Shown piece after piece: positions 37,071 through 60,256 of a stretch of 64,000 bases of DNA (within the stretch, counting starts at the first letter, position 1; each line of letters opens with the position of its first letter). Below the pieces are notes generated by a model. It worked only from the letters and a program-made list of their open reading frames with translations, made no database searches and was not told where the DNA came from. Position numbers and translations under genes: made by a program. Source of the stretch: a virus (taxonomy: Duplodnaviria > Caudoviricetes). The stretch spans positions 2,497 to 66,496 of the IMG/VR virus record IMGVR_UViG_3300028887_000117; one strand, 5' to 3'.

Positions 37071-38233
37071 AGGGAGTACGTCGCTAAAGAACTGTTCCGC
37101 GATGGTCACTATATAGCAATGAAGAACTAGACCTATCCCCGGGAACACCTCTCGTTCGTTCCGAAATATAGGAAAAGAATTTATAGGGGAATTAACAAAT
37201 GGGGTTGCGAGTTAAACCGTTGTTTTGGGTTCTTAGACAATTGTTAGTGTTATTAGACAGTTGTTTGTGTCTATTGAACAATTTTATTGTGTTAATACTA
37301 TTTTGTTAGTGTGGCAGCTCGTACACTAAAAGTCAATATTTTAATATAATAATATAATAAGGGGCTTAAAATTTTTCCTATCTAGTCGCGGCTCGCGCCG
37401 AAGGCGTCTACGTAAGCCGATCCCGTAAGGGATTTAAATAAAGGGGTAGGTAGCTCCTATAGTTAAGGGGTTATCCAGCTCCAATGTAAAGGGGTAGGTT
37501 ACCTCGGATTTTATTAGTAAAGGGGTACTAGATTTCGGGGCGTTTACGTTGTTAGATTTGACTTTCTGCGGGCTTCCAATTTCTGGGAAATGTAGTCGTA
37601 CTAAATTTCGAAGGAAAAATGCTATAAATTCGCTATGAAAAATTTTTTAGGAATAGAAATTCTAAAACTCTATTTTGCTTAAGTTCTAGATAGGAAATCG
37701 CCTTCAAATTCGCTAGCTGCTTTGCAGCTCGCAGAATTTTTGGAATTTGTTAAAAATTTTAACTAAATGCCGCCCCGATGCTTCTCCCAGGGACTATGGT
37801 AAAAACTGGAAACGCGCATAAATTAAAGGAAAACTAAAGCAAATCTACTATTTTGCTATTGTTTTAGGAATATTTTATCTAAATTAATAATTTACTTGAA
37901 GGAATTAAAGCAAATTTTCTATAAATTCGCTATTGTTTTGTAATAAATTAAAATTAAATCTCCGATTTAGTTAAAAATTTTAACTAATTTATATAATGTT
38001 TAAAGTTTTTTAAAGTGAAATGCTTGAGTTTTTCTAAAAAATTTGCTATAATATATATAGAAAAGAGAGAGAAAGGAACAAAATAGAGAAGAACGGTCGT
38101 AGAATTAAATGGAAAAGCCATATAAGGTGGGTAAAGTGGACTTGTTTACTTCTCTGTTGTTCCCTAAACGAATTTCTACAATTCATAAACAACTATTTAA
38201 ATATCCAGTGTAACTGGAAGAAAGAGGTACAGT

Positions 38234-38596
38234 ATGAATAAGAGAGATTTTTTCAATGCTATCGTAAAGGCTGACGTTGCAGACGAGGTTAAGGCTTTCG
38301 CAGTTAAGGCTATCGAGGACCTCGACAATAAGAACAAGGCAAGAGCAGTAAAGGCTACTGAGAAGAGAGCTGAGGTTAACGAGCCTCTGATTGCTAAGTT
38401 CAACGAGATTCTTGCTGATGGTAAGGAGCACTTCGCAGTAGATGTCGCTGAGGCTCTTGGTATTAAGGTAGCTAAGGCTGCTGTTATCGCTAAGCTGGCA
38501 GGTGCCGATAAGGCTAAGGTTAAGGTTGGCAAGGCTTATCGTATGGCTTACAAGGCAAAGGCAGAAGCTGACGAGGGCGAGGATGCCTAGGGATAA
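38234..38596 (+). CDS. family A protein (TAG read-through adds QG)
   Basis: paralog alignment; TAG-GGA-TAA end followed by terminator. Confidence 0.75.
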
Positions 38597-39009
38597 AGAA
38601 GAGATACCGTAAGGTATCTCTTTTTTTTTATTTGGGGAATTAGTTAAAAATTTTAACTAAAGTTGCAGCTCGCTTTTGTTTGGGGAATTAGTTAAAAAAT
38701 TTAACCAAATGCCTACGTTGATTGCCGCAGCTCCCACCTAGTGTCCGGACCGTAGGAATCGTAGCTCGCGCAGCTCCAGCTCGTTCGCAGCTCGCATAAT
38801 CGCAGCTCGCTGGTGAGATGGTATAGGTGCAGTATGGAAAATTTTGGGAGCGTGTTGGTGAGGTAAGAGCATCGCTTTACCACTTTAACACTTTAAAGCG
38901 TGGTGCCGTCGCGGCATTAATAGTTTGGTAATATATGAACATAATGTTACGATTGCGACAGACATAGGAAAGTTAAAATTTTTAACTAATTAAATAAAAA
39001 AGAAGAGGA

Positions 39010-39878
39010 TTATTCCTCTTCTTCGATATGCCAACTATATGGCAAATTACCTATCTTTTTTTCAATATAACATCTATCGTAAATATCGTCATAAAAAGGG
39101 CACTGTTTGCAAGCATCACCGTGGTTTTTGCAACCCGTTGCCAGTTCATCAAGTAATCTGTAAGCCTTGTCTACAAAGGCATTTTCTGCATTGATACATT
39201 CCTTTTCTGTCTTGTGGACTTTTCCGTTAAAGTCCTTATATCTTGGTTCATTGATAATAGTCATTATTTTGACCACCTTTCGTTTTATTTTCTATATATA
39301 GTATAACATAGATTTTATTAAATGTCAATAGTTATTTTATTAAAGTTTTATTAATTAGTTAAAAGATTTAATTATTTCGTAAATGTGAACAACGCGACAC
39401 TTGTGCCGCGGTTAAAATTTTTAACTAATTAAAATAAAAAAGTTGCGGATTATACCGCAACAATTTTAAACTCTTTAATTGTTTTACCAAAAAAGGAAGG
39501 TTTTAGGAGAATGTCTATCGCTTCGTGAACCTCATTCATTGGAACTGGTTCGCTATTGGTTTGGATAACTTCGCCCGTGTTAAGAGTAATTAAGATATTC
39601 CAACCGATAGACTTATTGCTCTGACTTGTAGGTTCTTGACGGAGAGAGTTAATCTTTTTAACAAGTGCTCTAATCTTATCGTCAACCGTAGAGTTTGCTC
39701 TTACCCAAGTCCAAGACTCATTATCCCACTGGTAAATTCCTGTTTCATCTACATTGTCAGAAATCCATTCATCATTGCAATCATCAAGGAAATCTTCTAC
39801 ATTATCAATGTAAAGATACATAGGATTGTTTTTTATTGTGCAGACCTTAAAATCTTCATCAAAATACTTGTTTGCCAT
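39010..39878 (-). other. two single-gene cassettes (39010..39276, 39450..39878), hypothetical
   Basis: each with AAAGGCGG/AAAGGTGG RBS, own promoter and terminator. Confidence 0.65.
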
Positions 39879-40060
39879 ATTAGCAACCGCCTTTCTTTTT
39901 ATTTTCTATATACATTATAGCATAGATTTTATTAAAAGTCAATAGAAATAAAATTAAATTTTTATTAATTGATTAAAATATTTAATTATTGCGAAAGTGT
40001 GAACGTTGCGACAGAATAAGAGAGTTAAAATTTTTAATTAATTAAAAAGAAAAAAACGGC

Positions 40061-40726
40061 TTATGCCGTTTCTTTCCAGTATGTGCGTTGCATTTTCTTG
40101 TGCTGACGGATACAATGTGCAAAAATTTCTTTCTCAATTAGCACATCTTCGAGACCCGTGTGCGACTCTATAAAGTCGTTATTATCTGTTATATATCTAT
40201 AAAGTATTTCTGCGGTGAGTCGGGGTTGATTATTTCTCATTGTATATCCATTCTCTTTACACCAAAGTCGATAAGTCTTTTGCTTGCCTATTGTTGTTCT
40301 TGCCATAGCAAGTGTGCACCATATTGTAGTATTATATGGGAGAAAATAACGTTTTTGAGACTTAGTTATATATCTCATTGTCGTATTCAATGCGTTATAA
40401 TCGAACCGCATATTGTGGGCGATAACTGCGGATACATTGTACTTTTGAATATATCTTGCAACTATCTGTCTTGCTGTTTCAAAGTTTACAAGACGGCGTG
40501 TTTTTGCTTTTAGTGCCGTTTCGTATTGCGGAATTTTTTCGGAGTAATACGCCGTTTCCATTAAGTCTCTCATCAATACAAATACGTCATAGATTACAAG
40601 ACTTTCCGTGTGATAGACGTTGCCGTGTTTGTCTACGATTGCAAAGCCTATATCGTAAACAAGAGGGTCATCAAGTCCGTTTGCCGTCTCGGTATCAAGT
40701 ACCATAAAATATTTTTTCTGCGCCAT
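40061..40726 (-). CDS. DEDDh 3'-5' exonuclease
   Basis: VLDTET, AHNMRFD, WCTLAM, ESHTGLEDV motifs. Confidence 0.85.
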   Translation of the reverse strand: MAQKKYFMVLDTETANGLDDPLVYDIGFAIVDKHGNVYHTESLVIYDVFVLMRDLMETAYYSEKIPQYETALKAKTRRLVNFETARQIVARYIQKYNVSAVIAHNMRFDYNALNTTMRYITKSQKRYFLPYNTTIWCTLAMARTTIGKQKTYRLWCKENGYTMRNNQPRLTAEILYRYITDNNDFIESHTGLEDVLIEKEIFAHCIRQHKKMQRTYWKETA

Positions 40727-40979
40727 TTTATCAACGTCCTTTCGTTTTCTTTAATCTTATTATAGCATAGAAATTGTTAAATGTCAATAGTTATTTTATT
40801 AAAGTTCTGTGAATTTGTTAAATGTTTTAATTATTACGGGAATGTTAAGAACCCGACAGAACGATTGCGGCGCAGTTAATTCTTTTAACGAATTAATAGA
40901 AATTTAATTTTATATCTATTGATTTTAAATAATTTATATGTTATACTATATATAGAAAATAAATAAAGGAGTTGCTAAA

Positions 40980-42396
40980 ATGAATAAGACTAAACTTTTT
41001 GAAAATTTTGGATATGTTGTATTAATGGGCTTGATAATTGCTCAATGTGTTATCGGTAAGTGGTATCTTGTTGGGCAAGGAATTTATTTGACTTGCAATA
41101 TTATTTCAGTTGTTCGGAGTTTTGTACTCAATAGACCAAAAGCAGATAAGATAAAAGATTTGTCTTGTACTGCAATAACTATTGGTTTGATTTTAATTGC
41201 TATAAAGTAAAGGAGTTGAAAAATTATGGGAATTTTTGAAAAGTTTGCAGTAATTACAGGAGATTGTAAAATTGTGGGAATATTTTCCTCTATTGATATG
41301 GCAGAAGATTTTATTAAGGGATTTCAGGTAGATTTTACCAGTGAACTCCGTTATTACAAAATCTATACAGATTTCTAAAAGTTGGCAATTGCCAACTTTT
41401 TTTTTAAAAGATTTAATTATTAATGGGATATTAACAACACGACAGTTTAAGTTATTACGATAGTATTAACAACGCGATGGTAATGTCGGATTGTTAATCT
41501 CTTGTTCACAATTATAGTGTCGCGTTGTTCATACTTTAGTCATATTTGGTTAAAACTTTTAACTAATTTAAAAATAAAAAAGGTTAGCAAATGCTAACCT
41601 TTCTTTTTTAACTTAACAGTACCGCAATTAAAATCAGGAGAAGTCCAATAGCAATAGGGAGATAAATTGGCATTAGTACGAACCACCAAGACCAAGAAAT
41701 TACTCCGCACAATTTAAGTGCGATAAAAAGCAATCCCAAAAGACCAAAGAAACCAACTCCGCCGTTTGATGACTTTTTTTCCATAATAAAAACCTTTCTC
41801 GTTTTAAAGAGTTTTCGTTCTCTTATCTTGATTATAGTATAACACATTTTAGGTGATTTGTCTATTGGCAAAATAGACAAAAATAAAAATTTTATTTTGG
41901 TTATTTTGATGATTGACTTTTTAAAATGAATATGATATACTATATATAGAAAAGGAATAGGAGTTGTTAAAATGTTAATGTTCATAAAGATAATAGTAAT
42001 TATTTTTTTTATTACTTTTTTTGTTTCTGCAATTATCGCTAAGAAAGAAAAATATACAGATATTTGTGTTACAATAATGATGTGGTCTTTTCGCTTATTT
42101 ACGGGGATAATGATTTTATTAGGTTTAGGTATTTTTGTTTGGGAATTATTTAGATAAAGGAGTTAAAAACTATGGAGATAAATGCTACACAATGGGAGTA
42201 CAAAACACTTGCAGAGATGTCAAAAGGCGATTGCTTTTTAAATAACAAGGGTAATATAATAGTATTTGATAGAAAGATAGAAAATCAAAAAGATAGATAT
42301 TATGTTCATCTTTTTAGGCATAGATATTTCGGTTTGATTTCTTATAAAGATACTGGAAAACTGTTTAAAGTTATTAAAAAAGCAGAGATATTTTAA
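40980..42396. other. small genes: 40980..41210 (+, membrane), 41608..41784 (-, membrane, LKLCGVISWSWW), 41972..42157 (+, membrane), 42172..42396 (+)
   Basis: ORFs with RBS, promoters and terminators. Confidence 0.6.
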
Positions 42397-42640
42397 AAAG
42401 GAGTTGAAAGTTAATGAAAAATGTAAGAGATTAACAGATAATGTCAATCTCTTTTAATTAGTTAAAAATTTTAATTATCAAATAATTGTTAAGATTACGA
42501 CAGTAACTTTATGAATAAGATATTGAGATTGCGATGGTAATATCGGATTGTTCATATTGGATTAACAATTGCAACTATCGGGTTGTTAATAATTCGGCAA
42601 TATTTAAAATTTTTAACTAATTAAAGAAAAAGAAAAGGGG

Positions 42641-43282: not shown

Positions 43283-43565
43283 TTATCTTGATTATATTAT
43301 AGCATATATTTTTTGATTTGTCAATAGGTTTTGAGATTTTTTTTATTAACTTTTTATGAATTTGTTTGTTGTGCCGCCCTTCAAAAATTTTGCGAAAGTG
43401 TGAACAACCCGACAGAACAAGGGCGGCACAAGATGAATAAACTATTAATATTGCGATAGTCCCGTCGTGATGTTAATCTCTTGTTCATAATTATAGTGTC
43501 GCATTGTTAATAATCTCGTAATAGTTAAAATTTTTAATTAATTAAAGAAAAAGAAAAGGTTGACA

Positions 43566-44092: not shown

Positions 44093-44414
44093 ATATATAT
44101 TATAATATAAAATGGAGCAAAAGTCAATTACAGAATAATTACGAATAGTTACAAAATGGTTACAGTATTTGATTAAAAGATTTAACTAAATCGCTCCGCT
44201 ATGTTGGCATTTATACTTTTGTAACATTTAGGTTTTAGTTAAAAATTTTACAGGAATGTGAACAATGCGACTGTGGTATAAATGTGAAGATTGTGTTAAT
44301 AATGCGATGTGAACTGTCGTAGTATTCATACTTTCGTCATATATAAAACTATCGCAACGTTCATAATCTCGTAATAGTTAAAATTTTTAATTAATTAAAG
44401 AAAAAGAAAAGGGA

Positions 44415-45002: not shown

Positions 45003-45455
45003 TTAGGAGGAATAATTAGTTAATGTCTTTAAATCATTTATTATATTATCCACATCAAATGCTATTCCCTTCCAATTTATTCTGTTGTTGACTTCATCGT
45101 CAAACAGAAAACCTTTTGCCAAAGTGTGTTTTGGTGTGCCATATTTAACAATAAAAATATTGTCAAATTCTACGCTTTTAAGGTGCTTTTTAAGCCATTC
45201 GATTTTGGCATTTTTTACCTTTTCATCGTATTCGGGAGTGGAGTTTTTCGCAAGCCACGAGATTACATTTATTGTAAATCCCTGCTTTTTCTTGTGGTTT
45301 AACATTCTTGCTAAAACTTGCATTTTAACAAGTGGTTTTGCTACGGCATAAGGGCGAGGATTGCAATTGATTAAATCATCAAGCCAATTATCCACGCCGT
45401 AAAGGTCTGCGATTGTGCCATCCATATCAAAATTAATTGTTTTTTCTATTGCCAT
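45003..45455 (-). CDS. HAD-superfamily phosphatase (5'-nucleotidase-like)
   Basis: FDMDGTIADL motif I, K..WL...L, LFDD motif IV. Confidence 0.8.
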   Translation of the reverse strand: MAIEKTINFDMDGTIADLYGVDNWLDDLINCNPRPYAVAKPLVKMQVLARMLNHKKKQGFTINVISWLAKNSTPEYDEKVKNAKIEWLKKHLKSVEFDNIFIVKYGTPKHTLAKGFLFDDEVNNRINWKGIAFDVDNIINDLKTLTNYSS

Positions 45456-45723
45456 TTTAACAACGTCCTTTCGTTTTATCTTGTCTATATTATATCATAC
45501 ATTTTCCGATTTGTCAATAGATTTTAAAAATTTTTTTTATTAACTTTCTGTAAATTGATTAAAAGATTTAATTATTGCGAAAGTGTGAACGTTGCGACAG
45601 AAGAATTTTGTAATCACTTTGTAACTATTTGTAATCAAAATGTAATTGACTTTTTTATTAATATGTGTTATATTATACATAGTAAAGAACAACACTAAGT
45701 CAAAAAATAGGAGTGATTTTTAA

Positions 45724-46116
45724 ATGAATAATTTAAGAGATTTTTCAGATAACTATAATTATATAATTATCGCTAAAAAGGGCAAGAAAATTTATTATTG
45801 GTGCTATGATTACACAACTGAATATAAAGCACAAGGCGCATTAATGGCACGAAAAGCAATAAGAGAGAGAAAAGAGGAATTTGATGATATAAAGGTTATC
45901 AAAGTAACATATCATATTTTTGGGCGTTCGGGAAAATGGAGAGATAGAAAACAAGTTCTTAAATGGCTTTATAATGATTTTCTCAATTGGAAAAAGTATT
46001 ATGATGATGAAGATAGAAGATGTAATAAAATAACAATAGACCGTTTTTGGCAAGAATTGGCATACGAAAAGTATTTATCTGTTAAGAATAATACTATATT
46101 GAATGAGGTTGATTAA
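45724..46116 (+). CDS. hypothetical protein
   Basis: cassette gene. Confidence 0.6.
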   Translation: MNNLRDFSDNYNYIIIAKKGKKIYYWCYDYTTEYKAQGALMARKAIRERKEEFDDIKVIKVTYHIFGRSGKWRDRKQVLKWLYNDFLNWKKYYDDEDRRCNKITIDRFWQELAYEKYLSVKNNTILNEVD

Positions 46117-46335
46117 TGTCAACCTTTTTCTTTTGATTAATTAATTAAAAGATTTAATTATTGCGAAAGTATGAACAACTCGACATTGTAATTGTTAACG
46201 GGGTATTAACTTTGCGACGGCGGCATCGGGATATTCATATTTCGTACATAACTTTATTTTGAGATTGCTGTCGCATTGTTCATAATCTCGAAATAATTAA
46301 ATCTTTTAACTAATTAACAAAAAGAAAAGAAGTGG

Positions 46336-46998
46336 TTATTCCACTTCTTTCCAGTAAGTCAACTGCATTTTTTTATGCTGTCTTTTCAAGTAGGAAAATA
46401 TTTCCTTTTCTATCATTACATCTTCTAATCCTGTATGACTTTCAACAAAGTCGTTATCTCCTGTAATAAACCTGTAAATAATTTCCGCTGTTAGTCTTAT
46501 TTGCTTATTCCGTGTCAAGTATCCATTTTCTTCACAATACCTTTTGTATGTAGGTTTGTTTTTGAAAATTGACTTTGACATTGCCAATGTGCACCAAAGT
46601 CTTGTGCCCATTGGGAAAAAATACCTTTGCTTTGAAGATGTTATAATTCTCAAAGTGGTATTTAGTGCATTGAGGTCAAACCGCATATTATGTGCCATTA
46701 CTGCATATACATTATACTTTTTCATAGTGTCAAGTACAATTTTTCTTGCTGTTGAAAATCTAACAAGTTCACGCTTTTTAGATTTCAAGTCAAGTTCGTA
46801 TTGTGGGAGTTTTTCGGCATAATACGCTGTTTTCATCAAATCTTTGCAAAGTATATAAATATCATAAATTACAAATGACCTCTTGTAATATACTTTGCCT
46901 GTTTTGTCAACAACGGAAAAACCTAAATCATAAACAAAAGGAAAATCCATATTGTTTGTAGTTTCCGTGTCAAGCACAATGTACAAACGCTTATTCAA
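46336..46998 (-). CDS. DEDDh 3'-5' exonuclease, paralog of 40061..40726
   Basis: same motifs; TTG start after AGGTG RBS. Confidence 0.85.
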   Translation of the reverse strand: MNKRLYIVLDTETTNNMDFPFVYDLGFSVVDKTGKVYYKRSFVIYDIYILCKDLMKTAYYAEKLPQYELDLKSKKRELVRFSTARKIVLDTMKKYNVYAVMAHNMRFDLNALNTTLRIITSSKQRYFFPMGTRLWCTLAMSKSIFKNKPTYKRYCEENGYLTRNKQIRLTAEIIYRFITGDNDFVESHTGLEDVMIEKEIFSYLKRQHKKMQLTYWKEVE

Positions 46999-47321
46999 TT
47001 TTAAACACCTGTCTTTCTTTAAGTTTCTGTATACATTATACATCATATAGATACAAAAGTCAATTACAAAATTATTACAAAAGGTTACAAAACGGTTACA
47101 GAACGCTTTAACGTTTTAAAGTGCTAAAATGTTACGAAAGTGTGAACGGTGCGGCGGCTCAGAATGTTAAGAGAATGTTAATAGTGCGACAGTGTCGTGT
47201 CGCTATGTTTATCTCTTGTTCATAATTAATCTGTCGTTATGTTCATAATCTCGAAATAATTAAAAAATTTAACTAATTAATGAAAAAGAAAAACGGCATT
47301 TCTGCCGTTTTCCATTTATTA

Positions 47322-47672: not shown

Positions 47673-48231
47673 ATTTTACCTACTCTTTCTCCGTTTTAAC
47701 GTCTACGGCTGACATTGATTTGTTATTGGGGACGTATGATTTTGAGGGGTTTTCTCTTTCCTTTGTTCTGTACTTATTATAGCACATTTTTTAAGGAAAG
47801 TCAATTGGCATTTTGCACAAATTTTGCGGTTTGTTTTTGTGCATTTTGCCGACTTATTGGGGAAAGTCATTTAGTGATTGAGTTTTCTGTATCTCTCTCT
47901 TTCACTATATACAGTATAACACATTTCTTTTGATTTGTCAATAGGTTTTGAAAATTTTTTTATTAACTTTTTGTGAATTGATTAAAAGATTTAATTGTTG
48001 CAAAAGTGTGAACAACCCGACAGATAGGAATGTTAAGAAAGTATTAAGGTTGCGACACGAACCTGTCGTAGTATTCATACTTTTGTTATATATATAAGAC
48101 TATCGCAGTGTTTATAGTTTCGTAATAATTAAAACTTTTAATTAATTAATAAAAGTTTAATTTTATTTCTATTGACATTTAATAATTTTTATGGTATAAT
48201 GATTATAGTAAAAGAAAAGGAGTTGAAAGTT

Positions 48232-49707: not shown

Positions 49708-50832
49708 ATGAAATTTGATTACAAGTTTAAGAAGAATGATATGGTAGTAAATACTGAGACAGCAAGAGTTGGCACAATTATCAAGAGAATAGGTTCATAT
49801 GATAAACCGTGTTATCTCGTAGAGTATGATATATCAACGCCGCCTTTTCTTGAAAAAGAAGAAAATCTTCATTTAGTTGTTTGTGGAACGACGTCTGAAA
49901 ATTCAACTGCAAATCAGGTTGAAAAAAATAACCTCGAAGAAAGAAAAGAAACTTTAAGAAATCATTTTGACCACATAGAAAGACACTGCCGCACAATTTT
50001 TAAATATGGTAGGAATATTTCTGAGCAGGCATTTTCAGGAAAGATAACTCCGTGTTTTGCAAGGGAAAAGGAAATTGAACAGATTAAGTGTGCTATGTAC
50101 AGAAGAACAAAGTCAAATGCTTTACTGTTGGGAAAAGCTGGAGTCGGAAAAACCGCTATTGTAGAGGGATTGGCTATTGATTACAATAGAGAATATCTCA
50201 ACGGCGAAATAGAAGAATATAATATGATACTTGAACTTAGTCTTAACGCACTTGTTAGCGGTTGCCGTTGTAGAGGAGACTTTGAGGAAAGACTCGAAAA
50301 TGTTTTGAAAGAACTTGGAAATACTCTACCATATAATGTAATAATCTTTATTGATGAAATACACAGTCTGAATGAGGTCGGCAATAGTGAGGGTGCTACA
50401 TCGGCAGGACAGATTTTAAAGCCTGCACTTGCAAGGGGAGATATAAAGGTTATCGGTGCAACGACAACAGATGAATATAAACAGTATCTAAAACCCGACG
50501 CCGCACTTGCAAGAAGATTTAACAATATTTATATTGAAGAATTTAAGGGTGAAAAAGCAAAGTCAATAGTATCAAGTATCTTTGAAGATTATGGTAAACA
50601 CTTTGGAATAGATATTAGCGAAGTTGATATAACTAATATCTATGATAAGAGTATCAATAAAATTAGCGGCACTTTCCCCGATAATTTTATTAACATAATT
50701 GATGAAACACTTGCTATTGCAAAATGCCACAAGGAAAAAGCTATAAAAATGAGTAACTTTGACAAGGTACTTGAAAGATACTATAAAATGGATAATAAGA
50801 AAAATTCTTCATTGGGATTTTCTACCACTTAA
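49708..50832 (+). CDS. ClpA/B/C-like AAA+ ATPase, first nucleotide-binding domain only, with N-terminal SH3-like domain
   Basis: RRTKSNALLLGKAGVGKTAIVEGLA, RGDFEERL, IFIDEIH, LKPALARG, IGATTTDEY, ALARRF; no NBD2. Confidence 0.85.
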   Translation: MKFDYKFKKNDMVVNTETARVGTIIKRIGSYDKPCYLVEYDISTPPFLEKEENLHLVVCGTTSENSTANQVEKNNLEERKETLRNHFDHIERHCRTIFKYGRNISEQAFSGKITPCFAREKEIEQIKCAMYRRTKSNALLLGKAGVGKTAIVEGLAIDYNREYLNGEIEEYNMILELSLNALVSGCRCRGDFEERLENVLKELGNTLPYNVIIFIDEIHSLNEVGNSEGATSAGQILKPALARGDIKVIGATTTDEYKQYLKPDAALARRFNNIYIEEFKGEKAKSIVSSIFEDYGKHFGIDISEVDITNIYDKSINKISGTFPDNFINIIDETLAIAKCHKEKAIKMSNFDKVLERYYKMDNKKNSSLGFSTT

Positions 50833-52804
50833 ATAAAAGGGAACGAATGTTCCCTTTTTATTTTCTATATTAGTTAAAATTTTTAACCAATTCCATAGTG
50901 TCGCAGTGTTCATAATCTGTTCATAACTAAGGGCGGCGCAACGTTCATAAATTGTTCATTTATTGTTTACAAAAAATTCATTGACAAATCACTTGAAATA
51001 TGTTATATTATATATAGTAAAGAACAACACTGAGTCAAAAAATTAGGAGTGATTTAAAATGACAATTTATGCAGTTGAGAAAACTTATTACGCTTGCGGT
51101 TTGCACAAAGAGATTAAGGGATATTTTTCAAAAAAGACAAAAGCAATTAAGGAATTGCTAAAAATTACTAATTATCAAAACGGTTTTCATATTTCTTATG
51201 AGGAAAAACGCTGGAATAAGGAAAATCAGAGAATGGAAACTATACTTTGTACTCCATATTACAATCCCGATAAAAAGGATATGAGTGATTGGAGACATAG
51301 CGGAATAACAAAACTTGAAATGTATAGACGTTTGTTAAAAGGAAAAAATGCGGGCTGTTATAATTATGAAACAGGCGGATATAGAATATTGGAAATAGAG
51401 GTTGATTAAAATCAACCTTTTTCTTTTGATATTTAGTTAAAAGTTTTAACTAATTCCTATGTCGCTATGTTCATAAATCCGTAATAGTTAAATCTTTTAA
51501 TTTATTAATTAAAGGTTTACTTGACAAATTGAAATTTATATGTTATACTATAATCAAGATAAGAGAACGAAAACTCTTTAAAACGAGAAAGGATTTGATA
51601 TTATGAAATTTGTTATTAGAAAAATAATTGAGAGAGAATGGGGATATGATAATTATAAACGTTCGCATTATGAAGATAAAATTTATCTTAATCCTTATAC
51701 TTATAAAGATGCTTTAAGAAAAATTAGTATGATATATGATGATATGGGGCGTATGTATAATACATTTAGTTCAACAATATATAAGTGGAATATAATTACA
51801 ATGCTTGTTCCAGTATCAGACAATTTTAAGAGTCAAACTAACTGGATAAATACAAAAAGTTTTTTAAAATATAAAGGTTGAATAAAATCAACCTTTTCTT
51901 TTTTCGTGAATTAGTTAAAAATTTTAATTAAATCGCCACGATGTCGCTATGTTCATAATTTAGACATAGTTAAAACTTTTAATTTATTAATAAAAAGTTT
52001 ACTTGACAAATTGAAATTTATATGTTATACTATAATCAAAGAAAAGAAAAGGAGTTGAATTAAATGAATTTTATATGGATAGTACATTTTTTCGATTTTT
52101 CAGAATTTAAACTGGAAATGCACATCTTCTCTCACCCGCAGTATGCATATAACTTTTGCCGTGAGTATCTGAAAAAGTATGAAAAGGAAGATTTTTACAG
52201 TGATTACTGTGCTATGTTGTGTCATTCTTATTCCGACAGTCGTGCAGATTTTGGAATTGAAAATGTAATTAGTGCAAAAAGATATGCAATTGAAAAGTAA
52301 AGTTTGTACAATTTGATGATTGACAAAAGCAAGATTATATGCTATAATATAATCAAGATAAAAGAACGGAACTTTTAAAATAAGGAGGATAATAATTATG
52401 GAAATGAAAACAACACAGAAAATTTTTAACAATTTTCTTGACAATCTTGCAGAGTTGGCTTGTGCTTTCTATGTAGCAAGTTGTGAGGAAACAGGCGCTG
52501 AAATTCTTGAACCTGATAACGAAGAACTTGCAGAAATGATTAGAGAGGTTGGCTGCAAGATTTGTGATTTTTGGCAGATTAAGGAAGTTAAAGAGGGCGA
52601 ATAACCCTCTTTAATTTTTCTTTAATTAATTAAAAATTTTAATTATTAAAGGGTTGTTAACTTTGCGACATTACAGGGGTTGAATATTTTATTAACAATG
52701 CGACTTGATGTCGGGTTGTTAACTTTCAGTTCATTTTTAAAAGGGGTCGTAATATTCATAAAAAATTAAAAAGGCGGTTCTAAATTTTAACCGCCTTTTT
52801 ATAT

Positions 52805-52845: not shown

Positions 52846-54945
52846 CTTTCTTTATATACATTATACCATATTCCTTTTGATTTGTCAAGATAAAATTTTA
52901 CTAATTTTTAAGTAGAAACTTTGTGCATTTTGTCTATTGATTTTATTATTAAAATGTGGTATATTATAAGTACAGAAGAAAACAACACAAAACTTTGAAA
53001 GGCGGTTTTATTTATGACAAATTTTGGAGAATGGGTAAGAAGAATGGTTAATCAGTATGAGGAAGATGATAGTATTTTAATTAGACTTTTTGGCAGTAAA
53101 ACCTATGTTGCATATAATTTTAAAACACAGAAAACATCTATTGCAAGATGTCACCCAAAAGATGTTTTTGTTGAAGAAATAGGTCGAGCAATTGCCTATG
53201 CACGTTGCAAGGGATATGAGATACCAAAAGTTGAGGTTTACAAGAAACTTTCCGAGATGAAGAACGGCGAAAAATTTATAACTTCTTCTGGAGATACTTA
53301 TAGATATATTGCAAGAGATGACTATAAAGGGGTTTTCGTTGTTTATAACGAGAGTAGGAAATATGGCGGAATGGCTTTTGACCTTAAATATAAAATGGTT
53401 GAGTAAAATCAACCATTTTCTTTTTAATAGAATATGAACAACGCGACAGATGAACGGCGGCACTTTGTAATCAAATCGTAATTATTTGTAACCGTTTTGT
53501 AATTGACTTTTCTATTGTTTTATGGTATATTATATATAGTAAAGAACAACATTGAGACTTTTGAAAGGTGGTTTTACTATGAATGAAATTTTTATGCTGT
53601 TGGTTTGTGTTGATGATGAGGACGCTATCTATAATCGCTATTTTTTCACAACATTTGAAAAGGCTTTTGAATTTGCAAAAACTTTTGCAAACGATTTTAT
53701 TAAAAAATGCAAGTGGGAAAATATTGAAGATGAATTGATTGAGGATTTGAGAAAATGTGGTAATCTTGCAGATTTTATCTACATTGAAAAAGTAATCCTT
53801 GACGATGGAAACAATTACTAAAAGAAAAGAGGAACGAATGTTCCTCTTTTAACTAACCTTCCTGTCGCATTGTTCATAATTAGTTAAAAGGGGAATTACT
53901 CCCCTTTTTTATAATACCTTTTAATTCTCTCGAAAACCTCTTTGACATCTAAGTAGCCTTCTACTGTGTCATCATCGTTTTCGCAGATAGCTCCAGCTAC
54001 TTCAACCAGCCCGCTATCGCGACCGTAGCTGAAATCGTGACAAATCACGTCAAGCTCCCACGTTTCAAGCTCGGGACATACAAGTTGTAGCCCGTTGAAT
54101 AGTGGACGCAGAATAAAAGGGATACCCTCGGCAGAGCACAAGTTGGCAAGGCGCAGTATTGGCTCACAATATTTGGGATTGGAAGTTTTTGGAAGCTGTA
54201 ATCCATTGTCAAAATTTGTCATATTATGACCACCTTTCAATATTTTCTAATAACATTATACCACAATAAATGTTAAAAATCAAGAGTTGAAAAATTAATT
54301 TTTTGTGAATTGATTTGTGAATGAGATATGAACGTTGCGACCGTGCAATTGTTAACATAGTGTTAAGACTGCGACGTCGCTATCGCATTGTTAACATTTA
54401 GTTCACAATTGCGCCGCCCCTCAACTGTCGCAACATTCATAGTATGTTAATAATTAAAAATTTTAACTAAGAAATAAAAGGGAGAGTAATCTCCCTTAAA
54501 TTTCCATTTCTCTTGAATAGCAACAAAGTTCACAGTATCCTTTAAATTCACCTCTAAAGAACCTAACTTTACCTTTATTGTACATTTTTGTCATTTCTTG
54601 AATGGCTTCATCAATTTTGCTTCTGGGAAAACTATGATGTACACCATACCAATCAAGTTCCTCTTCCATAAAGTCAAATGCTTCCTGATGGTTATCGAAA
54701 AGTTCGGGTTCGCCCTCTGAATAGGTTACGATAAAAAATGTTTTTGTCATTGTAAACAACTCCTTTGTTTTATTTTCTATATATAGTATAGCATATATTT
54801 TATTAAATGTCAATAGTTATTTTGTTAAAGTTTTATTAATTAGTTAAAATATTTTATTTTATGCTATTTAAATCTATCGCGTTGTTCATAATGTGTTAAT
54901 AAAAAGAGAGTTAACAAAAGTTAACTCTCATTGGGTTTTGCTTTT

Positions 54946-54983
54946 GGCTTTACGCCTACGACGCTACTGCGTCCTCGGCTACC
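54946..54983 (-). ncRNA. small hairpin RNA with GAG/GUA internal loop (copy 2)
   Basis: GCC-GAG-GACGC-AGTA-GCGTC-GTA-GGC; own promoter and terminator. Confidence 0.6.
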
Positions 54984-57900
54984 TTTCTTTTCTTTTCTAT
55001 ATACAGTATAACACATATTTAAGAAAAAGTCAATAGTCAAATTGCACAAAGTTTTTATTTTCTTTTGTTTATTTTAACAAGAGCAAAGTGTCGCAGTGTT
55101 AATAATTTGTTTACAAAATAGGGGTTGACAAATTGAAAGAAGTGTGTTATAATAAGGACAGAAAATAAAACAAAGGAGTTGTTCATATGAATACTGTATG
55201 GGTAATAGTTAAAGATGGAAAGACTTACGGAGTCGCAAAAGATAGGATTAGTGCATATCATATCCTTAAAGAGTACGTTATTAAAAATTATAACGGAGTA
55301 CCGAAAGCAATAGCAAAAAACCTTTTGACTAAAACTTTTTCAAGTCTTGATACTAAAATGTCTATAGGTAATGGAATTTATGCAGAGGAATGGGGAATAT
55401 CTGAATAAAAGAGAGTTTTAAACTCTCTTTTTATTTTTCTCTCTCTTTCTGTCGTAAACATAATAGTTTATTCATATTTTTATTCTGTCGCAGTGTTAAC
55501 ATATCATTCATTTTCGTTCACAAATTGTTTACAAAAAAATTCTTAAAACCTATTGACAAATTGGCTTGAATGTGTTATTATATAAGTACAGTAAAGAACA
55601 ACACTAAAACCTTTAAGGAGATGTTTACTATGACAATCACAAAGACAATACTTAATAAGAAACTCGAAAACCTCAACAGACAGTTTAACACAAATCTTTT
55701 TGTTCTCAACTATGCTTATGGCGGCGTTAGACTTTGCAAAACCTTTAATGAAAACGGCGGACTGACAGAAATTTCCGAAAGAGTTTCAAAGGCTGAGATG
55801 GCAAGAATTATTGACGCTATTTCAAATACTTTTTACAAGTTTGATATAAAGGTTGATTAAATTCAACCTTTATTTTTTTTCGCTTTTGTTCTGTCGCATT
55901 GTTAACATTTAATTCATAATCAATAGTGTCGCATTGGTAATAAATTGTTAATAGTTAAAACTTTTAACTAATTAAATAAAAAAGAAAAATAACGCCTCTC
56001 GGCGTTATCTTTCCCACCACTCTATGATGTCCCACAGAGTCACGATGGCGAAAGCGGACTCGTGGTCGCCTCTCTCGTCTGCCTCTCTAAGAAGGCGATG
56101 GGTCTCCGCCCAAAAGACTCTATTATCAGACAGTGGGCGACCGTTGAGGGTGATGTTTTCAAAATTTGTCATAGTGAACAACTCCTTTATACTGTTTCGG
56201 GTTTCTCTCTTACTGTACTTATAGTATACCACACTTTAAGGCAAATGTCAATTACAATTTGATTACAAAAGGTTACAAATTAGTTACAGTTTTTGTTCTA
56301 TCGCAAACATAATACTTTGTTCATATTTAATAGTGTCGCGTTGTTCATAAAAAATTAAAAGGGGAATTATCCCCTTTTAGTTTTCTCACAATGAATAGTT
56401 ACACCATTTCTCTTAATGAAGATGTACTTTTCGCCCTCGTACTCAATGTGAAAGATTGATACATAAACGTCGTCTGCCTGAAAGTCAAAATCATTCACCA
56501 AGAGAATTTTACCATAGTGAGAGCAATTCCAAAACAGATTTTCCATTTCCTTATTTGTCATAATAAACAACTCCTTTGAATAAATTAGAAAGACTTGCAA
56601 CCTACGGCACGCCTGCACCCTCGATTATCTTTCCTTTGTTTCTATATACAGTATAACACATTTTAAAAGAAAAGTCAATAACAATTTGATTACAAAAGGT
56701 TACAATTTGGTTACAGATTTTGTTCTGTCGCAATGTTCATAATCTCTTAACAATCAATAGTGTCGGATTGTTCATAAAGTTTTAATAATTAAAACTTTTA
56801 ACTTATTCAACAAAAGGAAATGGATTGATTTCTCAATCCATTACCATTGAAATAAGTTTGCCGTGTGCAATCGTTTCGTTGCGCAACTCAATCTTATTCA
56901 TTTTGCCGCAAGTCCAACAAACATAACCGTCTGCGAATGTGTACTTATAAATTTTCATAAAATCAACCTCTTTCTATGGTTTCGGGTTTTCCTTTTCTCT
57001 ATATATATAATAACACATTTTTGTTGAAAAGTCAATAGTCAAAATGACCAAAGATTTATATTAAACTTTGTCTATTTTGCGAATAGACAAAACAAGAAAA
57101 ATGTGCTATACTATAATCAAGATAAGAAAAGGAGTTGACCACTATGAAAAACAACAACTATCGCAAGATGAACACTGGCAAATATACCATACTCACAAAG
57201 AAGAACGCTCACAAGAGAGTTCGCAAGGCAAACAAGAAGATTGCCAACTCAATAGACTAAGAGGGAGAAATCCCTCTTTTTCTCTCACTCTCTATCTGTC
57301 GCTATGTTAATAGTGTGTTCATATTTTATTCTGTCGGGTTGTTTACAAAAGGTTCATAAAAAGTTCATAAACTGTTTACAAAATATTCATTGACAAATTG
57401 ATTAGAATATGTTATACTATAATCAAGATAAGGGAAGGAAAACCCACCAAACCAGAAAGGTAGTGTTTACTATGAGAAAGACCTATACTGTTGTTATGTA
57501 CGAGAACTTTACTGATGTTGTTGCTGAAAGAACCTATACCAACAAGAAAGCCGCTTTTGAAATGGCTAAGTGGTATATGGAACGTCAGTATGAACGTATC
57601 CACCCGAACAAGAAAGCGACGGACACTCTCAGAACTTGCATCAAGTACGGCACGAAGATGTTGAAAGAGAACGGCAAAATTCCTTTTATGGTAAAGATTA
57701 AAGAGAGTTGAAAAACTCTCTTTTCTTTTTGCCGTTTGCTATGTCGCATTGTTAACAATTCATTCACAATGTCGCATTGTCAATACTTTGTTCATAAGTT
57801 TGCAGTAAAGTTTGAAGTGCGGCGCAACATAACGTGTCGCAATGTTCATAAAATATTAAAGACCTTTCAAATTGAAAGGTCTTCGTTCTCGAACATCTCA

Positions 57901-60256
57901 ACAAGTTCGTAGAACTCTTTGACTGAATGACAGTCGAATTCAGTGTTGTTAATCTCACAACACTCTTCACCATAAGCGATGAAGTAAATGGATTTGGCAG
58001 TCTTTGCCAAAACCTCAAAAGTGTTTTCGATAAACTGTCTGTGTGTCATAATAAACAACTCCTTTATAGTTTTAGTGTTTTTCTTTACTATACACATTAT
58101 ACTATATATTTAGTGATTTGTCAATATTTTTTTTGAAAATTTATTTGTAAATAATTTATGAATAAGTTTATTCTGATTAACTACTCAATAGTGTCGCATT
58201 ATTAGTCTTTTGTTCATAATTAATCTGTCGCAATGTTCACAAAAAGTTAAAGAGGGAAATTACTTTCCCTCTAAGAAAAACATTGCTAAGAACTCAAACA
58301 ATTCGTCTATATCTTTTTTTGTTTTAGTCTTATCGTTTGCGCACTTATCGAATTTTTCAACAACTCTGTTGTTCTCTCCGTATCTGTCGGTAATCTTCTT
58401 TCTCATTTGCTTTATACTCATAATACACAACTCCTTTATAGTCTCGGTTTGTTCTCTTCTATGATTAAAGTATAACACATTTATACTGTTTTGTCAATAG
58501 ATATTTTGTAAATAATTTGTGAACAAAAACGGGGCGTTATCTGTCGCATTGTTCATAAAATGTTAAAGGGATTTTTTGGTAAATCCCTTTAATCATATTT
58601 TGAAAGTTGAATGAAATTATGTTCAACTTTACAAAACGGACACCACATCTTTTTTAGATGTCCTTTTGACGTTCTGCGACTTGATTTTTTATATGCCGTC
58701 GCAACAAAATTACAAGTCGGACACTTAAAACGCCGTTCTGTTACACTTGTTTTTCCCAATGTTTAATCAACTCCTTTTGTTTTCTTTATCTATATTATAC
58801 TATAAAAAAGGGGTACTGTCAATTGACATTTTGCACAAAATTATTTCTATACTTTTGGTAAAAAATAGGGGTCGGATTGTTCATACTCTGTTCATAATCT
58901 TTTAAGGGGTTGTAAACTTTTAAGGGGTTGAGATTTTTTAGGGGTTGAAAAATTTAAAACTCATTTTTCAGAATTTTTCAAACTGTCGGATTGTTCACAA
59001 TTCAGATTTATTTACTGTCGCAATGTTCACGTTCTGTTCACGAAATGTTTATAAAATATTTACAAAATATTCATTGACAAATTCGTTGAAATATAGTATT
59101 ATATAAGTATAGTAAGACAAACCCGAAACCTTTAAGGAGATGTTTAATTATGGTAATTGAGATTATGTTAGTTATTTTCATTATTCTTACTATTGTCAAT
59201 GCGTTATGCTATTTTAAAAATGCTCATAAGGAAACTATGCCAACTTATGCGGCAATTATCTGTTTAATAAATATAATCTATGGAATTATTATTGTTATAA
59301 TAGTAATGATATATGGTATAACATCATCAACAAAAGAAGAAAGCAATTCAAATTCAAGTGACTATTCAACAGAACAAACGTTTTATTATCAAATGACTGC
59401 AACCGCAGTAAATGAAAATACCTTTATAACAGAAGATGGTAATATGTGGAGAATGAAAAACATTAACATCGAAAAAGGTAAAAAGTACCAACTTACTTTT
59501 GATAATCACGATACTGAAATAATAATAGATGATGAAATTGTTGATTTCATTGAACTAAATGAAAAGGTTGATTAATGTCAACCTTTTTTCTTTATCTAAC
59601 TGTCGCATTGTTAATAATTAATCTATATTCAACTCTATCGCATTATTAATACTTTTTTAATATTTACGCCGTGCGGCACAATGTAATCTATCGCAATGTT
59701 AATATTATCTTAACAATTCTACTTTTGTTTTAGTTAAAAATAAAAACTTATTAATAAAAAGTTTAAAAAGAAATTTTTAAAAACTACTTGACAAATCTAA
59801 AAAAATATGTTATTATATAATCAAGGAAAACGAAAGAAGCCTTAAAACCTGAAACCTAAAAGGAGTTGCTACTATGAACGCAATGTGTTACAAAACAAAA
59901 GAACCTGTATACTATAACAAGGGTACAAGTTATGAAAAAAGTTGTGATACTTTTCTCTCTTATTATGCAAGCAATGACAAGAAAGAGGCAGAAGCAGAGG
60001 CAGAATATTACAACAGAGAAAAGCCTGCTAATGATGTTAGAGGTTATCCAATTGATTGGAATAAAATAGATTATTTCTATATCAATGAACAAGATTTATT
60101 TGATGACTAAGAAAAGAGGGAAAAATTCCCTCTTTTTTTTTCGCCGCCGACAGTGTCGTATTGTTAATAGCTCGTTCACAATTTGGTAGCTCGTTCATAG
60201 CTCGTAGCTTGTTTGTAGCTCGCATTATATAGGAATAAATATGGTTATATAGACAA

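Follow-up and report, generated by a model that had tools for sequence, protein, structure and literature searches.

Patterned spacers in a putative early-gene cassette array of a large uncultured phage

Introduction

Most of the unknown anti-host genes of phages reside in their early regions, and outside T4, T5, and SPO1 little is understood of how these regions stay together and how they are regulated and renewed. The PeSLs (promoter-early stem-loops) of T4-type phages consist of strong sigma-70-type early promoters and terminators, and in the hyperplastic regions they flank small ORFans (Arbiol et al. 2010, PMC2839356; Comeau et al. 2014, PMC4122927). SPO1's host-takeover module, as summarized in PMC6873191, comprises at least two dozen small early genes in short operons, with very strong promoters and ribosome binding sites (RBSs) (Stewart et al. 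1998, cited therein). In the cluster A mycobacteriophages, the stoperators bound by the L5 repressor are more than 20 asymmetric 13- to 17-bp sites, distributed over promoters and short intergenic spaces, and their orientation matches the direction in which transcription runs, and function depends on it (PMC9283540). The first-step-transfer region of T5 encodes a nucleotidase and nucleases, and is bordered by a dense non-coding block of direct repeats and palindromes with DnaA-like 9-mers (Davison, bioRxiv 10.1101/866236).

Here we analyze a stretch of 64,000 nucleotides (hereafter called the “window”) from a large uncultured phage, in which about 22 kb is occupied by tiny self-contained gene units separated by patterned spacers. 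The array is an unusually legible case, with at least four layers of grammar: promoter classes, phased upstream repeats, pairs of a 17-bp site, and caps. We propose, with a probability of about 0.5, that the spacers are sites for one or more phage-encoded early DNA-binding proteins that would insulate the units or shut them off, and that homology exchange between cassettes is a by-product.

Results

Organization of the array

The coordinates of the array and its features are collected in Table 1. The contig is a 66.5-kb fragment, which corresponds to 32% of the genome and lacks end repeats. Within the 22 kb, 31 promoters have at most one mismatch to TTGACA-17-TATAAT, as compared to 0.68 in shuffles, and relaxed rules give about 40 near-consensus sigma-70-type promoters. 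Terminator-like sites are also in excess, both between 37000 and 50500 (32 versus 7.9 expected) and between 50500 and 64000 (34 versus 4.9 expected). Each unit contains one to three small genes with strong AAGGAG-type RBSs, and the 42 called ORFs (median 79 aa) are divided between the plus strand (22) and the minus strand (20). From a terminator to the next promoter, 60-250 bp intervene, and the motif modules lie in these intervals. An earlier note on this DNA had described about 35 units of promoter, gene, and terminator in mixed orientation; the design holds, while the number rises to about 40.

The promoters themselves fall into classes. In the class-B promoters, four TGTAAY hexamers in 11-bp phase abut the -35 element, and 11-bp arrays are common upstream of the array promoters. 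Another class, uniform in itself, comprises 21 promoters of equal strength at 1879-33679 and lacks the 17-bp sites, which indicates that the motif marks one promoter class.

The roughly 40 array proteins are ORFans in Pfam, except for the NT5C-like and AAA+ proteins. The array exonuclease was recognized by PHROGs and by source names only; among the proteins P0001-P0014 (ENA and Logan), with 70-100% identity to the exonuclease, an identical one is encoded on a 176.9-kb contig. The true start of the second exonuclease paralog is probably downstream of the listed one. A search of Rfam over 36-64 kb gave no match. The host of the phage is probably of the low-GC, Gram-positive type. From its promoter type, its gene size and content, and the near-absence of TAG, we infer that the array represents a large phage's early region, of the host-takeover type.

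Table 1. Features of the cassette array and its surroundings (window coordinates)
Feature	Coordinates	Strand	Description
Putative early-gene cassette array	37746..60230	both	~40 promoter-ORF-terminator units with patterned spacers
Right-hand array part	54874..60169	+	23/23 sites on +, single or in 35-bp pairs
Boundary block	60250..60990		~25 half-sites TGTGAACAA phased by 11 bp, followed by 6.9 copies of a 25-bp repeat
Module A	41400..41570		sites 41429-, 41464-, 41483+, 41517+; cap 41546; between convergent genes
Module B	42455..42625		sites 42487-, 42521-, 42540+, 42575+; caps 42458, 42600; convergent
Module C	43370..43545		sites 43399-, 43443-, 43462+, 43496+; cap 43521; tandem minus-strand
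Module D	44225..44400		sites 44257-, 44294-, 44314+, 44349+; cap 44374; tandem minus-strand
Module E	46135..46320		sites 46170-, 46204-, 46223+, 46268+; cap 46293; convergent
Module F	47110..47280		sites 47141-, 47176-, 47197+, 47231+; cap 47256; tandem minus-strand
Module G	47975..48150		sites 48007-, 48042-, 48063+, 48100+; cap 48125; divergent
Module H	52620..52790		sites 52655-, 52690-, 52708+, 52744+; cap 52626
Module I	54295..54475		sites 54327-, 54361-, 54380+, 54425+; cap 54450; tandem minus-strand
Indel cassette (563 bp)	45601..46160	+	present in window, absent from contig Ga0310786_10005966
Replaced cassettes	50858..52020	+	116-aa and 92-aa ORFs; unrelated 1.28 kb in close relative
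Winged-helix protein, 124 aa	42641..43015	-	long helix and C-terminal winged HTH (model); candidate motif binder
Winged-helix paralog, 118 aa	38234..38590	+	43% identical to 124-aa protein
Winged-helix paralog, 116 aa	47322..47672	-	
Fourth, more distant winged-helix paralog	32175..32594	+	outside array; HMM E = 1e-21
DnaQ/epsilon-like exonuclease paralog 1, 221 aa	40061..40726	-	
Exonuclease paralog 2	46336..47046	-	63% identical to paralog 1
NT5C-like 5'(3')-deoxyribonucleotidase	45003..45455	-	
AAA+ ATPase (ClpA/B-like)	49708..50832	+	largest array gene

A 17-bp motif in the spacers

Using an iterated 17-bp weight matrix, we found 75 copies of CTGTCGCATTGTTCATA within 38906-60169, with 49 on the plus strand and 26 on the minus strand. 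Over the whole window the matrix gives 78 matches, as compared to 2-3 in base shuffles. The consensus with at most three mismatches gives 51 matches versus 0.6 expected, all of them inside 39384-60169. The earlier hand count, more than 40 copies on the plus strand and more than 20 on the minus strand, is thus borne out, whereas the motif length of 15 bp given with it has to be replaced by 17 bp. The sites are strictly intergenic, with none inside the called ORFs. Positions T3, C4, G5, G10, T11, T12, A14, and A16 hardly vary; all 51 strong sites have an unchanged core, and the flanks carry about 0 bits.

The sites are arranged in a regular manner. Eighteen pairs of neighboring sites on the same strand are 34-36 bp apart, and a half-site TTMAYA lies 11 bp past each site's own TTCATA, so that the half-site distances peak at 11, 22-23, 35, and 46 bp. 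Of the 35-bp lattice proposed previously, the pairs with a half-site between them are retained and the long arrays are not: the sites form pairs, and rarely triplets. In addition, minus sites meet plus sites head to head at 10 junctions of 18-21 bp, in which the 5'-TGTCG tips are separated by 2-5 bp.

How are the sites placed with respect to the genes? At least one site is present in all of the convergent spacers and, among the tandem spacers outside operons, in about 85-90%; three of the nine divergent spacers contain none. The distance from a site to the -35 element varies between about 21 and 84 bp, and site orientation is independent of transcription. In the right-hand part of the array, the sites are on the plus strand even beside minus-strand genes, and each is found either upstream of a plus-strand promoter or directly beside the terminator of a gene on the minus strand. 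Given the variable distance and the independent orientation, a classical operator role is not supported; in view of the variable distance, the promoter-free modules, and the 21 site-free strong promoters, we rejected promoter operation as the only role of the motif. We also rejected the motif as an alternative promoter, since only 9-of-12 sigma-70-like matches are present, and these are no commoner than chance.

Caps and four-site modules

AT-rich palindromes cap the spacers, as the earlier note had proposed: 27 of them (at most three mismatches) span 37746-56805, versus 0.08 expected. In a spacer “arm”, two asymmetric 17-bp sites stand 35 bp from each other and enclose a half-site at 11-bp phase; a cap ends the arm, and arms are found singly or back to back. 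In nine spacers, back-to-back arms form a full palindromic module, in the order of cap, two minus sites, two plus sites, and cap. The strand asymmetry noticed before, in which minus copies precede plus copies on the left and plus copies prevail on the right, is real: nine spacers are full modules, and the sites beyond 54.8 kb are exclusively on the plus strand.

The modules are located in convergent, tandem, and divergent settings (module G, for example, lies between the divergent promoters 47913(-) and 48172(+)), indicating that they serve neither simply as operators of promoters nor as stoperators. The arms are no more complementary within a module (0.41) than between modules (0.46), so that the symmetry resides in how the sites are arranged, and not in a folded DNA. 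For want of covariation within modules, we rejected hairpin or cruciform structures of the attC or REPIN kind.

Cassette turnover in a close relative

A 16.4-kb metagenome contig, Ga0310786_10005966, is 98-99% identical to the window over most of its length and carries the same motif. The two differ by five structural changes, with gain, loss, and replacement of cassettes at the elements of the grammar, and the spacer breakpoints for which the earlier note had proposed a check are thus present. First, the indel cassette, composed of a phased TGTAAY upstream region, a promoter (45646), a 130-aa ORF (45724-46116), and a terminator, is flanked by a direct repeat of about 45 bp containing a cap and a site (45549-45600 and 46133-46186); the right-hand copy is the left cap and site of module E. 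Second, of the junctions of the replaced cassettes, one coincides with the end of terminator 50835-50858 and the other lies within promoter 52003-52031. Finally, RBS sequence flanks or bounds two indels of ORFs, which delimit a 91%-identical block. The cassette turnover is T4 PeSL-like, and the repeated spacers are among the places of exchange. The junctions in the RBS and promoter repeats point to general homology-driven exchange.

Could a dedicated recombinase act on the arms and caps, as on integron, shufflon, or transposon ends, to move or invert the cassettes? The mixed cassette orientation would be in line with such an enzyme, as would the head-to-head tips, which resemble abutted element ends, and the one indel that is bounded exactly by cap-and-site repeats. 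However, neither the 66.5-kb fragment nor a relative that is 93% complete and carries an analogous array yielded a match to tyrosine or serine recombinases (PF00589, PF00239), in keeping with the earlier remark that no integrase is visible. The sites flanking the indel are direct rather than inverted, for which reason we rejected the transposon-end reading; the other junctions lie where homologous exchange predicts them; the arms lack attC-type hairpin covariation; and no inversion was seen between the window and its relatives. A dedicated recombinase is accordingly highly improbable. Of the gene-shuffling platform suggested earlier, the PeSL-like part is supported by the structural changes, and the integron-like part is not supported, given the lack of a recombinase match in the fragment and the 93%-complete relative, the cassettes' own promoters, the absent covariation, and the junctions in RBS and promoter repeats.

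Conservation of the motif core

The 42 sites shared with the close relative differ by 24 substitutions, all at degenerate positions or at G10. At T3, C4, G5, T11, T12, A14, and A16, there are no substitutions versus about 10 expected, and the sparing of these seven core positions argues for a bound protein. Judging from this pattern, the motif core is under selection, and part of its constancy could stem from gene conversion among the copies.

The spacers might instead have no sequence-specific function, and be paralogous copies produced by duplication or gene conversion, in addition to the AT-rich upstream curvature that strong promoters require. Near-identical spacer subfamilies do exist (41483, 43462, and 47197 are nearly identical between the sites, as are 44314 and 48063), and multi-base changes within single sites look like conversion patches. 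Moreover, the motif positions are overall no better conserved than the other spacer bases (3.4% versus 2.0% differences; at 2% divergence this whole-spacer comparison, unlike the per-position one, carries little information), and 11-bp arrays are frequent upstream of the array promoters. We nevertheless regard this explanation as quite unlikely. The core is invariant between flanks of nearly no information, single-base changes avoid it, and full modules are present between convergent genes without any promoter. In addition, the unrelated cassettes of the close relative bear their own 17-bp sites, while the strong promoters outside the array lack them.

More distant relatives and host factors

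No near relative at the DNA level was found among the cultured phages, with a best protein identity of at most 43%. IMG/VR was scanned with the 17-mer in its exact form, with a strict pair of sites, and with the conserved junction of arm and cap, and nothing real emerged; the strict-pair pattern matches only twice in the window itself, and its scan is therefore insensitive. In a metagenome scan with CTGTCGCANTGTTMAYA, 118 of 120 stretches among the matches listed have a chance-like number of at most two matrix matches, and L166 and L119, also among those listed, are two halves of one real relative. More distant relatives were found through the exonuclease gene, and they share the array design with different motifs. 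The closest array-bearing one, L090, has 17 copies of AATTAGATGTAnTACATCTAATT, 11 of which are placed 7-8 bp upstream of the -35 element; L092 has a 20-bp lattice of AACTAAnnTTAGTT; and an analogous array is carried by the 93%-complete relative, G001. This fast change of the motif fits a co-evolving phage protein.

Alternatively, the sites may bind a host protein, such as DnaA, Spo0A, or an OmpR/PhoB-family member (PhoP or WalR, for example), by which the phage would sense the host state, titrate the factor, or anchor its DNA. Directly repeated in 11-bp phase, the half-sites TT(A/C/T)A(C/T)A are consistent with such a protein, as are the phased TGTAAY hexamers of the class-B promoters; we take the half-sites to resemble the PhoP (TTHACA) and WalR (TGTWAH-N5-TGTWAH) boxes. 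Furthermore, neither the fragment nor the 93%-complete relative encodes an HU/TF1-type or OmpR-type domain, which leaves room for a host protein. The first-step-transfer region of T5 contains DnaA-like boxes, including TTATTAACA (bioRxiv 10.1101/866236).

Against these points, the invariant TCG core is absent from the host boxes, and most half-sites finish in ATA rather than ACA. The canonical DnaA box TTWTNCACA is not enriched in the window (13 versus 10.2 expected); three matches (TTATTCACA) lie inside the block at 60.25-60.7 kb. The 0A box TGNCGAA requires an A at position 6 of the motif, where the 51 sites have C 36 times, G and T seven times each, and A once. The likenesses to Spo0A and DnaA boxes, to which the earlier note had drawn attention, are hence not upheld. 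The unrelated motifs of related phages at the same spacer positions would be unexpected for a conserved host factor. On balance, binding by a host protein appears unlikely.

A winged-helix family as the candidate binder

What, then, might bind to the spacers as a phage-encoded protein? The only DNA-binding candidate that we found is a winged-helix family with four paralogs. The AF2 model of its 124-aa member (pLDDT 88.8) contains the helices 71-78 and 82-94 and the strands 98-105 and 108-115. All of its top Foldseek matches are winged-helix DNA binders, with weak E-values of about 5e-3; the PHROG match is to MarR (E = 1e-3), and no Pfam family scored above the cut-off. As modeled, the protein has a winged-helix fold. 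Members occur in the lineages that have TTAG-type palindromes, namely the window, the close relative, L090, and L092, and the search gave none in the other eight loci. The family is linked to the motif by co-occurrence in three related lineages, and is the best candidate for the motif binder; as the fragment covers only 32% of the genome, the binder could also be encoded elsewhere or by the host.

The Foldseek matches include centromere-binding winged-helix proteins, such as AspA, and this bears on another explanation, in which the sites act on the whole DNA molecule, in T5-like pausing of injection, replication, segregation, or compaction, with the boundary block as the master site. The half-site that fills this block at 11-bp phase beside the 25-bp iterons is the reverse complement of TTGTTCACA, the same 9-mer half-site as in the array, and the nucleotidase and the two exonucleases functionally recall the pre-early genes of T5. 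In contrast, nothing ties the dispersed sites, 75 in number, to injection, a comparable block is lacking in L090, and where the array lies with respect to the genome termini does not follow from the fragmentary contig. The T5 injection model is itself a hypothesis (bioRxiv 10.1101/866236). We consider an action on the whole molecule to be very unlikely.

Discussion

A model for the patterned spacers

We propose the following model, in which the 17-bp sites and the caps are predicted binding sites for one or more sequence-specific DNA-binding proteins. The binder would most likely be phage-encoded and expressed early, and the winged-helix family, with three copies inside the array, is the best candidate. 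By loading onto every spacer, it would cause the array to be treated as one regulatory class; once loaded, it would insulate neighboring units from each other, shut the class off together, or both. As a by-product, the repeated spacers, promoters, and RBSs would provide portable homology for the gain, loss, and replacement of cassettes. We infer the binding, the identity of the binder, and the insulating or shut-off effect from sequence data. The protein lattice envisaged in the earlier note is plausible in this light, since substitutions spare the motif core and the array encodes the winged-helix family. In a more elaborate version, which we find unlikely, the capped four-site modules would be the assembly points of the winged-helix proteins, and about 30 nucleoprotein boundaries would create insulated single-gene domains, enable their joint switch-off, and serve as the edges of cassette exchange.

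If the winged-helix proteins do bind to the sites, then the array would be a compact model for the co-ordinate control and insulation of dozens of strong promoters. The different motifs of the relatives, within the same design, would then be a source of orthogonal operator-binder pairs, and cassette boundaries would become predictable in metagenomic phage genomes.

Comparison with known systems

Like an integron, the array is a series of small single-gene cassettes, and imperfect palindromes stand between them. It differs in that each cassette brings its own promoter and terminator, both orientations occur, the fragment and the 93%-complete relative yielded no integrase, and the arms show no attC-type covariation. 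As in the first-step-transfer region of T5, a nucleotidase and nucleases are encoded and a dense repeat block forms the border; unlike in T5, there is no enrichment of canonical DnaA boxes, and the motif is spread over 22 kb rather than confined to one block.

The 75 asymmetric intergenic sites are reminiscent of the stoperators. In contrast to stoperators, their orientation does not depend on transcription, they form 35-bp pairs and inverted quartets, and they also lie beyond terminators; moreover, we saw no homolog of the repressor in what looks like a virulent phage. With the SPO1 host-takeover module, as summarized in PMC6873191, the array shares small genes in short operons with strong promoters and RBSs, most of the products being ORFans. 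It exceeds that module about twofold in length and also in number of units, the summary describes no comparable repeated spacer motif, and no sequence homology between the two was found.

The likeness to the T4 PeSLs is twofold. Dozens of promoter and terminator copies are clustered in a plastic region in both systems, and in both, close relatives differ by indels and replacements with their junctions in repeated regulatory sequences. However, the array has spacers of 60-250 bp in place of a compact promoter-terminator composite, and adds the promoter-independent 17-bp motif, the 35-bp pairs, the four-site modules, and the caps. Its genes occupy both strands, and its phage belongs to an unrelated lineage of the Gram-positive type. 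The array is thus a variation on known phage early-region designs, and its combined grammar of insulation and shuffling, if true, has not been described for any phage.

The array and its 17-bp site

The pattern of the array, a run of promoter-ORF-terminator units in both orientations with patterned spacers, is real and highly ordered. The 17-bp site has the consensus CTGTCGCATTGTTCATA, which matches 51 times with up to three mismatches (0.6 expected), and an iterated weight matrix finds 78 matches in the window. These counts uphold the repeated spacer motif described in the earlier note. All sites in the array are intergenic, and the called ORFs contain none. Among the 51 strong sites, T3, C4, G5 and A14 never vary and G10, T11, T12 and A16 hardly do; the flanks carry no information content. 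A half-site, TTMAYA, is located 11 bp past the TTCATA of the site itself. Half-site distances peak at 11, 22-23, 35 and 46 bp; 18 same-strand neighbour pairs are spaced 34-36 bp, and 10 minus-to-plus junctions 18-21 bp. The proposed likeness to a Spo0A box fused to a DnaA-like box is not borne out: where Spo0A requires A, all but one of the 51 sites have C, G or T, and TTWTNCACA shows no enrichment. The 11-bp direct repeats of half-sites presumably recall OmpR/PhoB-family sites.

How are the sites arranged? Alignment of the spacers gives an arm in the order inner site, half-site, outer site, cap. The cap is the AT-rich palindrome TTAGTTAAAAnTTTTAACTAA (27 matches, 0.08 expected), mostly 7-12 bp past a terminator. 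In nine spacers two arms stand back to back, with the caps outermost and 2-5 bp between the central 5'-CTGTCG ends, forming a four-site module of ~170-190 bp. Full modules lie between convergent genes (four), tandem minus-strand genes (four) and divergent promoters (one). Right of 54.8 kb the arms are solely plus-strand, as the bias reported for the right-hand spacers had suggested, even beside minus-strand genes, whose terminators they adjoin. The orientation of the sites therefore does not track transcription. The distance from site to -35 varies from ~21 to 84 bp. On a rival reading, the sites would serve the molecule as a whole, for instance in injection, replication or segregation.

Besides the sites, GTGCCGC occurs 25 times on both strands across the window (~1 expected). 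In the array it often stands immediately 5' of a 17-bp site, and site 43399 is bracketed by an 11-bp inverted repeat containing it (43371/43423). Repeats of GCAGCTCGC/TAGCTCG (13 matches in the window, 2.6 expected) are concentrated at both array edges.

Features of the window and of related loci (window positions unless a locus is named)
Feature	Position	Strand	Remark
Weight-matrix sites	38906-60169	49 +, 26 -	75 of 78 matches
GTGCCGC, examples	39403, 43371/43423, 48936, 49541, 53457, 59673
GCAGCTCGC/TAGCTCG edge regions	37314-38810, 60186-60223		9 of 13 in the first; 1 at 60215
TGTAAY-subclass promoters	44099, 45646, 47035, 53503, 56223, 56650
Promoters with no ORF of at least 25 aa behind	43296, 44099, 47776, 47913, 52860, 55005	-
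Second promoter class	1879-33679	+	21 promoters
Boundary block	60250-60990
Boundary block, second part	60751-60923		25-bp repeat, 6.9 copies
tRNA genes	2-31 kb		28
Frame opening only with TAG as amino acid	61937-63133	+	11 TAGs
Frame opening only with TAG as amino acid	3309-4196	+	5 TAGs
Frame opening only with TAG as amino acid	23970-24713	+	5 TAGs
NT5C-like deoxyribonucleotidase	array		domain/family match
Two exonuclease paralogs	array		63% identical mutually; match PHROG 'DNA polymerase exonuclease subunit' family
AAA+ ATPase	array		domain match
116-124-aa winged-helix family	array (three copies); 32175-32594 (fourth)		sequence family
ORF exclusive to the close relative	L166 4458-4640		helix-turn-helix-looking sequence
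Regions with own spacer grammar	L090 6046-13919; L092 3180-8130; L091 promoters

Promoters, boundary block and gene products

The array has 31 promoters of nearly perfect sequence (0.68 expected), and terminator-like sites exceed expectation four- to seven-fold. The 42 called ORFs (22 plus, 20 minus; median 79 aa) stop at TAA (35), TGA (5) or TAG (2). Nearer the promoters, and separate from the sites, 11-bp-phased arrays of GTTCATA/GTTTACA, TGTAAY or A-tracts define promoter subclasses; in the TGTAAY subclass, four hexamers at this phase run into the -35. The second promoter class is equally strong and very uniform, TTGACTTTTTTAAAAATTTTTGnTATAAT then ATATATAGAAAAG, and has no sites and no caps. 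The motif thus marks the array, not strong promoters generally. The second class may have its own regulator; its spacer is itself an A/T palindrome. The array promoters of consensus sequence that have no ORF behind them may drive small RNAs, and no Rfam family matched in 36-64 kb.

The 9-mer TTGTTMAYA occurs 50 times where 6 are expected, and copies of it at 11-bp phase also pack the boundary block at 60.25-60.75 kb. There, ~25 copies of TGTGAACAA/TGTTAATAA repeat the array half-site in minus orientation, and one protein may read both this block and the array sites. L090, the closest array-bearing relative, has no comparable block at the matching place.

The window is almost the whole of a 66.5-kb IMG/VR record, estimated by CheckV at 32% of a genome, and DNA and protein comparison found no close cultured phage. 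Its genes include those for RNA ligases and a polynucleotide kinase. With TAG translated as Gln, a few frames outside the array extend further. The TTGACA-17-TGnTATAAT promoters and AAGGAG ribosome-binding sites suggest that the host is of low-GC Gram-positive type. The array products are almost all ORFans. The homologs of the exonucleases are labelled 'DNA polymerase III epsilon subunit-like' in their source records.

Cassette turnover in a close relative

The metagenome matches listed for the motif are mainly single chance occurrences. The exceptions are two loci (L166 and L119) that join into contig Ga0310786_10005966 (16,366 bp, 45 matrix matches); among these matches, the exact motif is known only from this phage and that near-identical relative. 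The contig aligns collinearly with window 36966-53414 and is 98-99% identical to it, except for one 91% block. A 563-bp cassette in the window (phased upstream region, promoter, 130-aa gene and terminator) is missing from the contig; a ~45-bp direct repeat of cap plus site flanks it in the window and is single-copy in the contig. Window 50858-52020, two cassettes, is swapped for an unrelated 1.28 kb with its own minus-minus-plus-plus module. The left junction is a terminator end and the right one falls within a promoter; a 28-bp patch common to both phages inside the spacer indicates further mosaicism. The contig also has two extra single ORFs, each within an operon. Copies of the RBS repeat AAAGGAGTTGAAAA stand on either side of one, and the other lies between the promoter and start codon of a gene. 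The 91% block extends between these two indels and was thus apparently acquired from a more distant relative.

Such structural differences between near-identical phages mean that cassette turnover is fast relative to point change. It exploits any short regulatory repeat at hand, as at the PeSLs, the promoter-early stem-loops of T4 (PMC2839356; PMC4122927). Cassette order, whose invariance would have spoken against the gene shuffling proposed in the earlier note, indeed varies. A dedicated recombinase, as the integron-like option of that note would imply, is not supported. No tyrosine or serine recombinase was detected in the 66.5-kb fragment or in a 93%-complete relative, in agreement with that note's finding of no integrase. 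The sites on either side of the cassette indel are in direct rather than inverted orientation. Arms of the same module are no more alike (0.41) than arms of different modules (0.46), which argues against selection for attC- or REPIN-like folding.

Selection on the sites and a candidate binder

Are the spacers functionless paralogous repeats? Between the window and its close relative, motif bases are no less prone to differ than the rest of the spacer, with differences of 3.4% in motif bases and 2.0% in other spacer bases. However, the 24 differences in 42 common sites all fall at positions 0, 1, 2, 6-10, 13 and 15; T3, C4, G5, T11, T12, A14 and A16 have none, against ~10 expected if evenly spread. 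The motif core is under selection, and since 10 of the 15 altered sites carry a single change, its sparing is not only conversion between copies. The spared core, position-specific information, fixed spacings, intergenic placement and presence in unrelated incoming cassettes lead us to read the sites as putative protein-binding sites.

On a rival reading, a host factor would bind them. The sole DNA-binding candidate found in this analysis is the phage-encoded 116-124-aa family, which has only 24 database relatives. AlphaFold2 on the family alignment (pLDDT 88.8) gives a winged helix-turn-helix preceded by a long helix. The top Foldseek matches are all winged-helix DNA binders (Stf76, MarR and ArsR types, AspA), though at E ~5e-3, and a protein atlas agrees. 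HU/TF1-type and OmpR-type domains were looked for and are absent.

The array exonuclease as query retrieved 11 viral contigs at 43-62% identity. In L090, from a 108-kb contig (93% complete), same-strand mini-units make up an 8-kb array, which holds 16 of the 17 copies of the 23-bp palindrome AATTAGATGTAnTACATCTAATT; in 11 of the 17, the palindrome ends 7-8 bp upstream of the called -35. L092 carries AACTAAnnTTAGTT blocks on a 20-bp lattice, and L093-L098 repeat the GTGCCGC-related palindrome AAAGTGCCGGCACTTT. In the L091 promoters, CAAAAGCTAAA replaces the -35 upstream of TATGATATAAT. The array design is thus a trait of the phage group, with a motif that varies by lineage. L090 and the window share a nucleotidase, a winged-helix gene, a 123-aa gene and the exonuclease in roughly the same order, with one swap; their remaining cassettes are mostly not common. 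The outer AATTAG...CTAATT of the L090 palindrome resembles the window's cap, as do the TTAG/CTAA halves in L092. The winged-helix family occurs in exactly these three lineages and in none of the other eight loci. As the three are related, this co-occurrence weakly favours a link between the family and cap-type palindromes.

Proposed role and comparison with known systems

We propose that the region is an early, host-takeover-type cassette array. The putative binding sites in its spacers would be occupied by a protein that is probably early and encoded by the phage, and the winged-helix family is the candidate. The sites would set the array apart as one class, handled co-ordinately with its units mutually insulated, and the repeated spacers would double as recombination homology. 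We give this reading as a whole about an even chance.

Of the defining features of integrons, neither an integrase nor attC was found in the DNA analysed, and the array fails the orientation feature of stoperators. It is without the compact promoter-terminator composite that defines PeSLs, but likewise shows turnover at short regulatory repeats.
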